A DNA stretch of 55,427 nt, from the NCBI GenBank assembly GCA_017609175.1, contig JAFCEJ010000001.1, positions 1-55,427 of the forward strand, written 5' to 3'. Source of the DNA: Candidatus Pacearchaeota archaeon. GTDB taxonomy: Archaea; Nanobdellota; Nanobdellia; Pacearchaeales; GW2011-AR1. The position numbers and the translations under genes are program-made. Of the stretch, positions 17,483 through 52,733 are shown piece by piece (positions within the stretch are counted from its first letter, which is position 1; each line of letters begins with the position of its first letter). The notes beneath the pieces were generated by a model that worked only from the letters and a program-made list of their open reading frames with translations, had not been told where the DNA came from and made no database searches.

Positions 17483-17603
17483 GAGCCTGTAGCTCAGTCA
17501 GGTTAGAGCACTGGTCTTATATGACGATGATTCACTGGAATCATTGCACTCTAGATTCGTCTAAGAGAGCCAGGGGTCCTCAGTTCAAATCTGAGCAGGC
17601 TCA
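17483..17603 (+). tRNA. tRNA-Ile(UAU) with 46-nt intron (17522-17567) at 37/38
   Basis: Acceptor GAGCCTG/CAGGCTC, anticodon stem CTGGT/GCCAG, loop CT-TAT-A, T arm CTCAG-TTCAAAT-CTGAG. Perfect BHB: CTTA/TAAG core, GACGA/TCGTC outer helix. Confidence 0.95.
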
Positions 17604-17767: not shown

Positions 17768-17910
17768 GCCCCGATAGTTCAGAGGCCAAGAATGCAGCCC
17801 TTTCAAGATGCAGAACCTACTGATGGTTCTTTACTCTTTGACTCTCTTGAGGTTGTCTCAGGGATGATTGAAGAAAGGCTGTGACCCGAGTTCGAATCTC
17901 GGTCGGGGCA
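17768..17910 (+). tRNA. tRNA-Glu(UUC) with 70-nt intron (17806-17875) at 37/38
   Basis: GCCCCGA/TCGGGGC acceptor, CAGCC/GGCTG anticodon stem, CT-TTC-A, CCGAG-TTCGAAT-CTCGG. BHB with CTTT/GAAG core. Confidence 0.95.
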
Positions 17911-39121: not shown

Positions 39122-39174
39122 AATATATTTTTTAGAATAGATTTGTTTTTAAAGATTGGTGTTTGAGGAGGTTT

Positions 39175-39516
39175 ATGAAAGAACAATTTAGAATTGAATA
39201 TTCTGATGATTTCCATTTTGTAGAAAGACATACCAGATTTATCTATGATGAATCAGTTGGAAGAGTAAATGAACAAATTCATGATAGTAAAGAATGGATT
39301 TATGGTGATTTTTCATATGATGGTTGCAGGACAGATTATTATTGTAATACTGTTGGGGTTTTTGCAAAAACAATTTGTGAAACAGCTGGCAGAAAAACTC
39401 CTGCAAATAGATTAACATTAGTGGCTCTTGAAGAATCTCGGCTTGAAAGAACAGCAGAATCACTTGGACTCCAATTTGATAAAAATAAGATTATTAAAGA
39501 AACCATTAAAGAATAA
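39175..39516 (+). CDS. Hypothetical protein
   Basis: GAGGAGG SD before ATG 39175. Confidence 0.65.
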   Translation: MKEQFRIEYSDDFHFVERHTRFIYDESVGRVNEQIHDSKEWIYGDFSYDGCRTDYYCNTVGVFAKTICETAGRKTPANRLTLVALEESRLERTAESLGLQFDKNKIIKETIKE

Positions 39517-39547
39517 TTTTTTCTGTATTATTATATATGAAGATTTT

Positions 39548-39602
39548 AAAAAATATAGCAGGTCAAGACCGAAGTCTTAACCCAGCCCAACCGAAGTTAG
39601 GC
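39548..39602 (-). ncRNA. Predicted small RNA of two tandem cUUCGg hairpins
   Basis: Minus strand GCCUAAC-UUCG-GUUGGGC-U-GGGUUAAGAC-UUCG-GUCUUGACCU. G-U pairs work only on this strand. TATA CTTAAATA starts at 39631, 29 nt upstream; U-run follows. Confidence 0.7.
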
Positions 39603-39651
39603 AATATTATAATGGAAATTCATTATTTAAGTCTTTTGTGTCATTGGGGGA

Positions 39652-39975
39652 TTAATAATTTTCTTTTTTATTTTTAATAATTTTATTAAACATTTCTTCT
39701 GTATAAATCGTGACTAATGCCAGTTGCTCTAAATCTTTTTTGTCTTCTTGAATTAAAAAATAAAAATATCTTTCTTTTCCTCTATCTAATTTTGTTTTAA
39801 GAAACCATGTTTTATTATAACACTCTAAACTGCTTAAATCATTAACTCTTCTTAGAATACTCTTTGCTTTTTCTTTGATATTTCTATGGGTGTTTTTTGT
39901 TGGACTATATCCTTTGGCTCTTTGTTGATATTTTCGAATAAAATGATGAGTTATTTTTACCTTCTTTTCTAACAT
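39652..39975 (-). CDS. Basic hypothetical protein, possible RelE/BECR-fold (DUF4258-like) ribonuclease
   Basis: VKITHHFIRKYQQR N-terminal helix and YFYFLI...LVTIY C-terminal strands. Confidence 0.55.
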   Translation of the reverse strand: MLEKKVKITHHFIRKYQQRAKGYSPTKNTHRNIKEKAKSILRRVNDLSSLECYNKTWFLKTKLDRGKERYFYFLIQEDKKDLEQLALVTIYTEEMFNKIIKNKKENY

Positions 39976-40053
39976 TTTTTTATGTTGAAAAATTCTTTTA
40001 AAAGGATTATAGTTTTTCAAAACATATAAAAAAGTAAAACGTCTGCTTTTTTT

Positions 40054-40350
40054 ATGGAAAAAACAATTGAGGAGTTAGAGAAAGATTATGATTTAGAATT
40101 AGAAAAAATTGTGAGAAAAATAAAAGAGCATAAGGCGAAATTGGTTTTATTGCAGTTTCCCGATGGTTTGAAGCCTTATGCAACAGTTATTGTTGATTAT
40201 CTTGAAGAAAAAACTAAAGATGTGGAATTCTTAATTTGGCTTGATAGCTGTTTTGGAGCTTGTGATATTCCTGTTGGGTTAGATGGGCTAAAACCAAAAA
40301 TTGATTTGATTGTGCAATTTGGGCACAATGAATTAATGCCGAGTTATTAA
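40054..40350 (+). CDS. dph2: Diphthamide synthesis Dph2, N-terminal domain only
   Basis: LLQFPDGLK, SCFGACD, IVQFGH; stops at 98 aa. Confidence 0.85.
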   Translation: MEKTIEELEKDYDLELEKIVRKIKEHKAKLVLLQFPDGLKPYATVIVDYLEEKTKDVEFLIWLDSCFGACDIPVGLDGLKPKIDLIVQFGHNELMPSY

Positions 40351-40477
40351 TACAAAATTTAGAATTTTAGTATAATCTTCAGCGAAGAAAATTTTTAGAG
40401 CAAGAGTTAATTAAATTACCATTGAAGCGTTACAATAAATAAAAAGGTTTATAAATTGTTAAATTTCTCTATTTTTT

Positions 40478-41581
40478 ATGACAAATGAAATCCATTATGG
40501 TGTAATATCTGATGTTCATCAAGATCCAAGGGTAGTTCCGGCAACTATCGAAGTTTTGAAAAAACTAGGTGCAGAAAAACTTCTAATAAATGGAGATATC
40601 GGTAATCAACAAAGAACTCTTGAAGATAGTCAGAATTATGTTGCGTTTATTCTTGATTCTATTGGTAAAAGTGGTTTAGAGTCTTATGTTCAACCAGGAA
40701 GTCATGAAACTTTACTTGCTTTTGGTCCAGTAATTGATTATTTCGCTGATAAATATGATAATTTATTTACTATAAGCAAACCATTAAAAGTATCTGGAAA
40801 AAATCATGATTTGATTTTTTTGCCAGGGTCAGATTGGAATGCAGGTGGAGAATATCATATTGGAAATGATGAAAGAATCCCAAGCGGAAGATACATTCAA
40901 ACAGAAAAAGGTTTGATACCTTTTGATGATTTTGACCAATATATTAGTGCTATTCAGCAAGGAATTGCACAGGGTGCAATGCAATATGCTAACATGAATG
41001 ATTTAAGAAAATTAGTAAATGATCCTGATAAGAGCATCGTAATTTGTCATGTTCCAAGAAAATTTGATAGTCTTGATACTGCCGTTGATGTTGCTCACTT
41101 TTGGCAAGGAAGAGTTTACCACAGAGATTTTACAAAAGATCCTGTCAAAGATTGGACTTATACAGAACTTGATGTTATGCCAGGGAGCATACCTAAGGAA
41201 AGAATTGAATTACAAAGATCATGCAGAGCTTATTCTTTTGGAGAGAAATCTGAAGAAGAGATATTGGCAGAAGCAATTGAATTTACCAAGAAAGAAAACC
41301 TAGAAAGATGTTTATTTGTTGTTGAAATGAAAGAAAATAGAGGAAATAAAGATTTAAAATCGCTTTATCAAGAGGTAGGAATTACTAAAGCAGTAAGTGG
41401 TCATTTCCATGAAAGCGGGCATAAGGCAAATGATAATTATGGAAATCATGTTCCTGAAGGAAAATTTGTGACTGATTTATTTTGGAATTCTGGATGGTTA
41501 GATACTGGACAAACAGGAATTTTGACAGTTAGAGATGGAAAAGTTAGTTATAAAAATATTTGCCTTGAAGAATATTTATAA
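40478..41581 (+). CDS. Calcineurin-like metallophosphoesterase with large insertions
   Basis: ISDVH, INGDI, PGSHE, ICHVP, SGHFHE. Confidence 0.88.
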   Translation: MTNEIHYGVISDVHQDPRVVPATIEVLKKLGAEKLLINGDIGNQQRTLEDSQNYVAFILDSIGKSGLESYVQPGSHETLLAFGPVIDYFADKYDNLFTISKPLKVSGKNHDLIFLPGSDWNAGGEYHIGNDERIPSGRYIQTEKGLIPFDDFDQYISAIQQGIAQGAMQYANMNDLRKLVNDPDKSIVICHVPRKFDSLDTAVDVAHFWQGRVYHRDFTKDPVKDWTYTELDVMPGSIPKERIELQRSCRAYSFGEKSEEEILAEAIEFTKKENLERCLFVVEMKENRGNKDLKSLYQEVGITKAVSGHFHESGHKANDNYGNHVPEGKFVTDLFWNSGWLDTGQTGILTVRDGKVSYKNICLEEYL

Positions 41582-41624
41582 TCAAAATCTTCTCATTTAT
41601 TTAATGAACTTATTAGATTTATGA

Positions 41625-42335
41625 TTACAGCCAACCCATTAACAGACTTAATCCTACTAAGAATAATAACAATCCTGCAATGAGGTGAAGATATCTAATG
41701 TTTCGTTCTTTCCACCCCGAAACTTCTTCAACTTTTGCAAATCCTCTGTAAACTAAAAATACAATAATTAACATAGGAATAATGAATAAAATATTATAAT
41801 AAAGCAACCAAGGTAATGCACCGACTAAACCTTTTTGAAATAATAATCCTGATGCTACTATATATGGTCCTATTGTACAGGGTAATAAGAAAAGAGTAAC
41901 GAAGATTCCTATCACAAATGCACCTTTTGGCGAGGTAATTTTTTTTATAAGCTGTTTCATTCGTGGTCTTAAGGGCATCGGCATTTCTGTAAAAATACCC
42001 CCTGGTTTATATATGAAATAATCTTTAATATTTAATGCTCCAATAATCATGGCAAAAATCGCTAATCCATTATATAAATAATATGCAAAAGAACTCTCCC
42101 TTATTGCGTCGTCGAGTGTTTTGAAAAATTGCATTATTATAACCCCATAAAAAAGATATCCAACATAAACCGCTGCTATAAAAGATAGGCCCCCATAAAG
42201 AACTCTTTTTTTCTTTTCAGGATTTTGAATTAAGATGGTTATTAAAACGATTGACAAAACAGCGATTGCACAGGGGTTTACTGAATCTGCCAAAGCAAGT
42301 GCAGTTATTCTTGTAAAACTTAATGCATCATTCAT
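41625..42335 (-). CDS. CcdA/DsbD-type transmembrane thiol-disulfide electron carrier
   Basis: DSVNPC and LLPCTIGPY in a six-TM protein. Confidence 0.85.
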   Translation of the reverse strand: MNDALSFTRITALALADSVNPCAIAVLSIVLITILIQNPEKKKRVLYGGLSFIAAVYVGYLFYGVIIMQFFKTLDDAIRESSFAYYLYNGLAIFAMIIGALNIKDYFIYKPGGIFTEMPMPLRPRMKQLIKKITSPKGAFVIGIFVTLFLLPCTIGPYIVASGLLFQKGLVGALPWLLYYNILFIIPMLIIVFLVYRGFAKVEEVSGWKERNIRYLHLIAGLLLFLVGLSLLMGWL

Positions 42336-52594: not shown

Positions 52595-52733
52595 TCCCTC
52601 CACCAGGATTCGAACCTGGGATCTCTCGGGTGCTGCTTCTTGACTTTTGGGGTTTCATAGAATTTCATGAAAATGAATCTCCACCTTAAGTAAAACCTAC
52701 AGCCAAGCGCTCTAACCACTGAGCTATGGAGGG
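52595..52733 (-). tRNA. tRNA-Tyr(GUA) with 66-nt intron (52696-52631) at 37/38
   Basis: CCCTCCA/TGGAGGG with archaeal C1-G72 and A73; CTTGG/CCGAG stem; CT-GTA-G. BHB core CTGT/GCAG. Confidence 0.95.

Follow-up and report, generated by a model that had tools for sequence, protein, structure and literature searches.

Can two short hairpins in the gap between two convergent open reading frames (ORFs) of an AT-rich archaeal genome constitute an RNA gene of their own? This question is raised by a locus in a stretch of 55,427 nucleotides from Candidatus Pacearchaeota archaeon (NCBI GenBank assembly GCA_017609175.1, contig JAFCEJ010000001.1, positions 1 to 55,427 of the forward strand), the whole of which is referred to below as the window. 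The source genome (G000) comprises 497 kb with a GC content of 30-31% and is 87.7% complete. An initial annotation, made by a model from the sequence alone, had described a small RNA with its own promoter and terminator on the minus strand at positions 39548 to 39631. Our analysis leads to a similar view and extends it: the element is very probably an independently transcribed small RNA gene, selected for its structure and belonging to an uncatalogued, lineage-restricted family.

Anatomy and fold of the two-hairpin element

The initial annotation had described stems of 7 and 10 bp on the minus strand, both with a cUUCGg cap and joined by one U. The sequence matches this description exactly, and RNAfold returns the same structure. 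Read from 5' to 3', the element and its signals are composed as follows (coordinates are those of the window):

39632..39640, minus strand: purine-rich stretch CACAAAAGA, resembling a B recognition element (BRE), directly upstream of the TATA box
39624..39631, minus strand: TATA box, the 8-mer CTTAAATA, ending 21 nt before G39602
39585..39602, minus strand: hairpin H1, 7 bp with a cUUCGg cap (sequence and RNAfold)
39584, minus strand: linker, a single U (read from the sequence)
39560..39583, minus strand: hairpin H2, 10 bp with a cUUCGg cap (sequence and RNAfold)
39548..39559, minus strand: 3' tail GC-UAUAUUUUUU, U-rich and terminator-like (read from the sequence)

The spacer between the TATA box and H1 is AT-rich and 21 nt long. 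The H1 strands, GCCUAAC (39602-39596) and GUUGGGC (39591-39585), enclose the loop UUCG (39595-39592) and contain one U-G pair, while those of H2, GGGUUAAGAC (39583-39574) and GUCUUGACCU (39569-39560), enclose the loop UUCG (39573-39570) and contain two G-U pairs. All three G-U pairs described at the outset are hence present, and the opposite strand would have C-A mismatches in their place. The minimum free energy structure and the centroid structure of the minus strand both consist of H1 and H2, with an energy of -27.6 kcal/mol. Shuffles of this strand gave -13.9 +/- 2.7 kcal/mol (z = -5.0), none of the 200 folding as well, and the plus strand folded worse than the minus strand (-18.2 kcal/mol, z = -2.4).

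The element also stands out in composition, as had been remarked earlier: its 49-nt core has a GC content of 51%, against the 30-31% of the genome. Pairs of the word CTTCGG spaced 8-30 nt apart occur once in the window, where 0.01 would be expected, and no site in the whole genome other than this element contains adjacent TTCG-capped hairpins of at least 5 bp each. The element is present in a single copy in the source genome, where dispersed copies of the repetitive extragenic palindromic (REP) type, named initially as evidence that would speak against an RNA gene, were looked for.

Homologues and covariation

BLAST searches with the 96-nt region against 40 relatives gave merely short, AT-rich chance matches to the promoter part, and homologues became detectable only after a switch to covariance models, an approach that the initial annotation had suggested for DPANN genomes. 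The model built from the single sequence (R1) produced four clear matches at 32-42 bits, in other genera of the same family. Rebuilt from five sequences and applied to one genome per genus with a cut-off of E up to 0.1, the model (R2) matched 41 of the 151 genomes of the same archaeal family, each from another genus. When the third model (R3), built from 30 sequences, was applied to a sample of the order, matches came from 30 of the 105 other family members and, outside the family, from one of 45 genomes belonging to eight other families of the order (G038, 32.9 bits). It should be noted that the genome search is limited to about 39 scored candidates in each genome and that many assemblies are incomplete, so that these counts are lower bounds and the absences soft. 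Relatives carry one to three model matches per genome; with this copy number, and the single copy in the source genome, we rejected a dispersed repeat of the REP or miniature inverted-repeat transposable element type.

Two sequence patterns were also used. The pattern CTTCGGTN{10,32}YTTCGGWT was run over 400 genomes of the phylum; the source element itself fails it, and its backwards-read control matched many genomes. Among 30 loci from this search that were rescored with R3, only two passed, both belonging to family f1, and a third R3 match was the G038 locus already obtained from the sample of the order. The pattern AACTTCGGTTN{8,30}ACTTCGGT was run over collections of species genomes and viral contigs, again with rescoring by R3. 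Among the genome matches listed, most were due to chance or to bacterial terminators; rescoring added at least 13 loci from archaea, each with a score of no less than 49 bits and with the promoter; their organism titles include Pacearchaeota, Woesearchaeota, Nanoarchaeota and 'archaeon'. The viral contigs, scanned with the same pattern and R3, contained no convincing viral member. Within the genomes covered by these searches, the RNA was thus found almost exclusively in a single DPANN family of the Pacearchaeota type.

The initial annotation had taken the G-U pairs as a sign of selection at the RNA level, and the homologues bear this out by covariation. In the model-fitted alignment of 30 sequences, 95.2% of the cells hold standard pairs and 14 of the 17 pairs show changes on both sides, values that none of 500 shuffles reached, and pairing dropped to 26-57% when the partner columns were slid by 1-3 positions. 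All seven pairs of H1 are kept, five of them with compensatory changes, and double changes were found in nine of the ten model pairs of the lower stem of H2. An independent alignment of 30 sequences that included the 3' tails, made with MAFFT and analysed with RNAalifold, gave the same two hairpins with compensatory changes in 13 of 16 pairs. These data support the view that the fold is under selection.

With regard to the primary sequence, the H1 tip AAC-UUCG-GUU is nearly invariant among the homologues, and the common form of the H2 tip is (G)AAC-UUCG-GUUU. The lower stems are free to vary in sequence as long as pairing is kept. The linker varies from 0 to 6 nt. The stem of H2 is 10-14 bp long; it is frequently interrupted by one or two U-U mismatches, and its internal loops measure at most about 2x2 nt.

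Promoter, start and 3' end

To characterise the flanks, the upstream regions of 50 homologous loci were aligned on the first hairpin. TATA-like 8-mers (at least seven of eight positions identical to YTTWAWWA) end 20, 21 and 22 nt before the base of the hairpin in 9, 35 and 19 loci, respectively, overlapping 8-mers being counted separately, and none was found at 14-18 or 24-32 nt in the 50 loci. Essentially all 50 loci hence have a TATA box 20-22 nt before the first hairpin. A BRE-like A/G-rich stretch (of the cgaaag, ccaaaa and agaaag types) precedes this box in the aligned loci and is also found at the 5S rRNA gene of the source genome. Moreover, where extra hairpins precede H1, the TATA box is displaced upstream by the same step. 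The usual archaeal geometry has the TATA box centred near -26/-27, and the 5S rRNA and signal recognition particle (SRP) RNA genes of the source genome have the same box 20-21 nt from their 5' ends. The sequence data thus agree with the earlier claim that the RNA has its own promoter, and transcription would, as judged by promoter spacing only, start at G39602, with which the stem of H1 opens, or right beside it, so that the RNA would begin with a paired base.

The earlier claim of a terminator likewise receives support from the 50 loci. Positions 2-11 after H2 consist of 58-80% T. The word TTTT occurs in the tail of 34 of 50 loci, compared with 22% of control 18-mers from the same loci, and the corresponding figures for TAT[AT]TT are 19 of 50 loci and 4.4%. 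Similar T-rich stretches are found downstream of the tRNA genes of the source genome. The 3' end of the RNA probably lies in this U-rich stretch.

Modular arrangement of the hairpins

Among the relatives, one to three H1-type hairpins stand ahead of H2; in at least nine of the 50 loci, three UUCG-type hairpins follow one another, owing to one or two extra H1-type hairpins before H2. In two cases whole units are repeated. G090 (C1:26521-26710, equal to L071 1501-1690) has three complete abutting units, each consisting of H1, H2 and the word ACUUAUAUUC or a close variant, with a single promoter, and L231 has two complete tandem units behind one promoter. The tandem units in both end in (A)CUUAUAUUC or CCUAUAUUC, abutting the next hairpin; this junction word could serve for weak termination or for processing. 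Judging by these loci, the RNA seems to be made up of one hairpin module, strung together in varying number and closed by a longer hairpin.

Comparison with known RNA families

The absence of a known family, as claimed initially, was examined with Rfam 15 (4227 models, among them those for tRNA, 5S, SRP, RNase P, C/D and H/ACA sRNAs and other archaeal sRNAs). At gathering thresholds the window contains only four tRNA matches, none of them at the element, and when 39350-39850 was scanned with the cut-off relaxed to E up to 10, the only matches were csRNA (21.7 bits, against a gathering score of 57) and MEG8_3 (10.4 bits), both of which we consider noise. It had also been claimed that the element follows no tRNA, SRP, RNase P, 5S, C/D or H/ACA pattern. 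Each of these was tested and none applies; the SRP, RNase P and 5S RNAs are encoded elsewhere in the genome, as are the large rRNAs:

C3:3350-3612: SRP RNA, at another site than the element
C6:47932-48286: RNase P RNA, at another site than the element
C6:147726-147840: 5S rRNA, at another site than the element
C6:42518-43793: 16S rRNA, 1276 nt versus 1478 model positions
C6:44492-47304: 23S rRNA, 2813 nt versus 2987 model positions

A tRNA or tRNA half was rejected on the grounds that there is no ARAGORN or Rfam tRNA call, that the loops are tetraloops and that the base of H2 and the nucleotide next to it are unconserved. Guide RNAs are recognised by the boxes C (RUGAUGA) and D (CUGA), or, for H/ACA RNAs, by a pseudouridylation pocket and an ACA box; the 57-nt sequence has no C, D or ACA boxes, and the internal loops of H2 do not exceed about 2x2 nt. 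Mimicry of a Shine-Dalgarno (SD) or anti-SD sequence by H2 was considered as well. GGAAGG/CCUUCC is found in many relatives, and the 3' end of the 16S rRNA is CCUCCU; H2 of the source genome and of several others is not SD-like, and this candidate was dropped. The rRNA, SRP and RNase P RNAs of the genome contain no hairpin that the element could mimic. In the open-access literature we found no description of such an RNA, nor of further non-coding RNAs in DPANN archaea, and to our knowledge almost none have been described in this group beyond rRNA, tRNA, SRP RNA and RNase P RNA.

The source genome encodes about 32 tRNAs. Three tRNA genes in the window have long introns (46-70 nt as called by ARAGORN), at 17483-17603, 17768-17910 and 52595-52733, and further intron-bearing tRNA genes are found elsewhere in the genome, with introns of up to 90 nt in tRNA-Trp.

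Genomic neighbourhood

In the window, the element is situated between two convergent ORFs, 49 nt past the stop of the 122-aa ORF:

39163-39516, plus strand: 117-aa ORF, unannotated, between the RNA and aIF5B
39652-40020, minus strand: 122-aa ORF, unannotated, upstream of the RNA

Neither ORF has a match in Pfam, PHROGs or NCBIfam. Conserved neighbours, a search for which had been suggested initially, were sought over the 50 loci; this brought out recurrent neighbours in up to nine loci and no conserved one. Among the nearest downstream ORFs, 25 share the strand of the RNA and 24 are encoded opposite to it; for the nearest upstream ORFs the corresponding numbers are 23 and 25. The commonest neighbours are aIF5B, downstream on the same strand (9/50, in some loci only 55-140 nt off), a thioredoxin/DsbD-like pair (9/50), seryl-tRNA synthetase (7/50), an unnamed protein of 117-129 aa (7/50) and a split N-terminal piece of Dph2, which lies divergently upstream (6/50). 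A tRNA call is found within 1.5 kb in ten of the 50 loci, one being a wrap-around call (L059), where about 20% would be expected from tRNA density by a rough estimate. Since the neighbouring genes and their orientations vary, and since the RNA has its own promoter and tail, we conclude from the sequence comparison that it is most plausibly encoded by a free-standing gene and is neither leader nor terminator.

The ancestral gene order was likely Dph2-N, RNA, aIF5B, an arrangement in which the three adjoin in other genomes and which in the window would have been interrupted on both sides by the 122-aa and 117-aa ORFs. Several observations concern the genes of this region. In G000, L029, L030, L047 and L050, the RNA and aIF5B are separated by an ORF that is a different one in every genome and is always encoded opposite to the RNA. 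The 117-aa ORF is bracketed by a 15-nt inverted repeat with arms at 39124-39138 and 39543-39557 (93% complementary); by a rough estimate this is near chance in AT-rich DNA. No inverted repeat of 12 nt or longer was found in 40300-41800, around the metallophosphoesterase gene at 40478-41581 (plus strand). Dph2, a diphthamide synthesis gene, is split in the source genome: a 98-aa ORF at 40054-40350 of the window (plus strand) corresponds to Pfam profile positions 1-62, and the remainder (profile positions 56-275) is encoded on another contig (C6:84780-85385, minus strand). In five relatives, the RNA gene has as its neighbour an ORF of 94-110 aa that is homologous to this N-terminal piece. As for nearly complete genomes, G103 has a short Dph2 of 91 aa, and G169 and G083 have full-length forms of 344 and 332 aa, respectively.

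Weighing of other explanations

If the hairpins were simply the terminator or a stabiliser of the 3' untranslated region of the flanking convergent ORFs, with no dedicated RNA, their location between the ORFs, shortly behind the stop of the 122-aa ORF and with a U-run behind, would be accounted for, and similar pairs of UUCG hairpins with a T-run do occur at the ends of bacterial and phage genes (after tuf in L155, after an open frame in L241). Archaea, however, do not require a hairpin for termination, and a terminator offers no reason for a BRE/TATA element kept at a fixed distance. Moreover, in 25 of 48 loci the gene upstream runs in the other direction, so that a transcript to terminate is often lacking, and the bacterial and phage look-alikes lack a promoter and score only 25-41 bits in spite of having been pre-selected by the pattern. 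We consider this explanation very unlikely. A function as 5' leader or attenuator of the gene for the translation factor aIF5B appears extremely improbable. It would agree with the nine of 50 loci in which this gene follows on the same strand, at times at the short distances given above, but aIF5B is not downstream in the other 41, the nearest downstream ORF is opposite in 24 of 49, and in the window the opposite-strand 117-aa ORF intervenes. In addition, a locus with an adjacent aIF5B (L033) has a separate TATA-like box between the RNA and the start codon, and the tail behind H2 is U-rich and terminator-like. The element might also be the ribosomal fragment that replaces lost helices of 16S or 23S rRNA, or a tRNA-like minihelix that is cut by RNase P and tRNase Z and receives CCA. 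Both rRNAs are indeed short (1276 versus 1478 and 2813 versus 2987), the promoter is like that of stable RNA genes, and H2 with its 10-14 bp is near the 12 bp of the acceptor/T minihelix of tRNA, being followed in one subgroup by A and C-rich letters. An essential part of the ribosome should hardly be missing from most genomes of the family, including some that are 98-100% complete; furthermore, there is no free strand able to pair with rRNA, and even at E up to 10 none of the Rfam rRNA and tRNA models matched. No conservation is seen in the first pairs of H2 or in the base that comes after H2, no CCA stands in register, and the loop is a tetraloop and not a 7-nt T-loop. This alternative, too, seems to us exceedingly unlikely.

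Two further explanations place the element in the mobile or defence gene pool. One holds that it acts as folded DNA, being a recombination or attachment site, for instance of the integron attC/attI type, or a small mobile repeat. The H1 strands fit the core words RYYYAAC and GTTRRRY, and comparison with relatives shows insertions of variable unannotated ORFs to either side of the element, with the 15-nt inverted repeat around the 117-aa ORF. Integrons and attC arrays are reported in Nanoarchaeota in passages of PMC9668308. The source genome, 87.7% complete, contains no match to the tyrosine recombinase domain PF00589, not even of the XerA type, and has one copy of the element and no array in which it alternates with ORFs. 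The G-U pairs fix one strand, the promoter stands at a conserved distance, and the R-Y pattern is to be expected anyway of RNA helices that evolve through wobble (G-U) intermediates. H1 is a perfect 18-nt tetraloop hairpin, far shorter than attC and without its L boxes or unpaired spacers, and the inverted repeat, AT-rich as it is, is roughly estimated to be near chance. We give hardly any credence to this explanation. The other holds that the RNA is an antitoxin or a defence or conflict RNA, either on the type III model of ToxI or as an anti-CRISPR RNA mimicking a repeat, and that it is processed into units that neutralise a protein. The patchy occurrence within genera, the variable copy number, the variable unannotated small ORFs adjoining the RNA, and the tandem units of G090 and L231, with one promoter and the conserved junction word CUUAUAUUC, speak in its favour. 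Against it, no protein gene follows constantly on the same strand (in 24 of 49 loci the nearest downstream ORF is on the other one), only one unit is present in most genomes, and the adjacent small ORFs differ by genome and have no match in Pfam, PHROGs or NCBIfam (PADLOC was not among these databases). As for the anti-CRISPR variant, H1 is single-copy in the genome, no search beyond that having been aimed at CRISPR repeats. We regard an antitoxin or conflict RNA as having a very low probability.

Proposed mode of action

Taken together, the evidence makes it likely that a non-coding RNA of about 50-57 nt, from a modular, uncatalogued family, is encoded here by a gene that stands on its own; to this we attach a proposal of protein binding. 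In this proposal, the BRE/TATA promoter at 39640-39624 would direct initiation at or next to G39602, the transcript would fold co-transcriptionally into two very stable cUUCGg hairpins with a one-U joint, and transcription would end in the U-rich stretch behind H2. The resulting RNA would have almost no single strand apart from its U-rich tail, and its closed 5' end and GC-rich stems would protect it from exonucleases and give it a long life. It might then act through its shape and not by base-pairing, as a multivalent platform for a hairpin-recognising protein, i.e. as the scaffold of a small ribonucleoprotein (RNP) or as a decoy, each UUCG-capped tip offering one protein-binding site.

Three features suggest that a protein is bound: conserved unpaired nucleotides are lacking, the hairpin tips are conserved, and one and the same module occurs in variable number. 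The conserved nucleotides are almost all located in a helix or tetraloop, and there is no conserved pairing strand, pocket of the riboswitch or ribozyme type, or junction. That the RNA binds protein as scaffold or decoy is nevertheless a tentative suggestion, which we would not call probable. Still more speculative is the possibility that it forms the core of an archaeal RNP or protein-titration system specific to DPANN archaea of the Pacearchaeota type, with modular tips that would each bind one protein subunit.

Several findings weigh against the view of a functional, protein-binding RNA. Most genomes of the family have no match, including the nearly complete G083 (98%), G103 (100%) and G169 (98%), and no divergent copy was found at the syntenic site of these three. 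The distribution is patchy even inside genera, with matches in five of 11 genomes of g102, two of eight of g24 and five of five of g103, which indicates that the RNA does not serve a core function. It should also be underlined that the 30-sequence alignment was fitted to the model and that related genomes are not independent observations. With regard to protein binding, a strict sponge of the CsrB type is opposed by the finding that no other AAC-UUCG-GUU hairpin, which could be the mimicked target, occurs in the 497-kb genome or its stable RNAs, and the neighbour analysis of the 50 loci gave no candidate partner protein.

DPANN archaea have tiny genomes and have not yet been grown alone. That such reduced genomes have retained an RNA of about 50 nt in dozens of genera, and its promoter and fold along with it, indicates a function that repays the cost. 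The patchy presence and the variable number of modules suggest that this role is accessory or regulatory and not one of housekeeping. Being small, clean and strongly covarying, the family could easily be catalogued and sought in metatranscriptomes; the hairpin tip would serve as a defined bait for the partner protein.

Relation to known systems

There is a likeness at the DNA level to the tandem UUCG intrinsic terminators of bacteria and phages, in which two adjacent cUUCGg hairpins are likewise followed by a U-run; these follow the same DNA pattern and score 25-41 bits. Unlike them, the archaeal element has a BRE/TATA at a fixed distance and randomly oriented neighbours, whereas the terminators lie directly behind coding regions without a promoter. 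Double-hairpin terminators of this look were seen at L155 118-170 (after tuf, Microbacteriaceae) and at about 139-200 in L241, L253, L295 and L245 (after an open frame, related viral contigs). With ToxI, some members share tandem units, one promoter and a conserved junction word, but they are not followed by a toxin gene on their own strand, and the majority consist of one unit, tandem arrangements being found in only a few genomes.

Composition screens reportedly led Klein, Misulovin and Eddy in 2002 to the Hgc RNAs of Methanocaldococcus, which are GC-rich small RNAs. These resemble the present RNA in being GC-rich structured islands in an AT-rich archaeal genome with a BRE/TATA promoter and an oligo-U end. 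In contrast to them, our RNA has no match in Rfam, which holds Hgc, is much smaller and simpler, and was found, in the genomes covered, almost only in one family of DPANN archaea.

With regard to its putative way of working, the RNA resembles CsrB, RsmZ and RsmY, which are also small RNAs with variable copies of one short hairpin conserved at its tip, little single strand, and their own promoter and terminator. It differs from them in coming from another domain of life, in having no sequence or Rfam relation to them, in a module that is AAC-UUCG-GUU instead of a GGA loop and occurs only two to four times per RNA, and in having no known CsrA-like partner. As would be expected of a sponge, several copies of one hairpin motif are present, AAC-UUCG-GUU being found on both H1 and H2 and each RNA having one to three H1-type hairpins; the same motif in targets, also to be expected of a sponge, was absent from the genome and its stable RNAs, as noted above. 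From sequence and predicted fold, the RNA appears to be a member of no catalogued family and at most CsrB-like in its working. Should the doubtful titration model hold, it could be viewed as a convergent archaeal counterpart of the CsrB-type sponges, with a dose set by the number of hairpins and of tandem copies.

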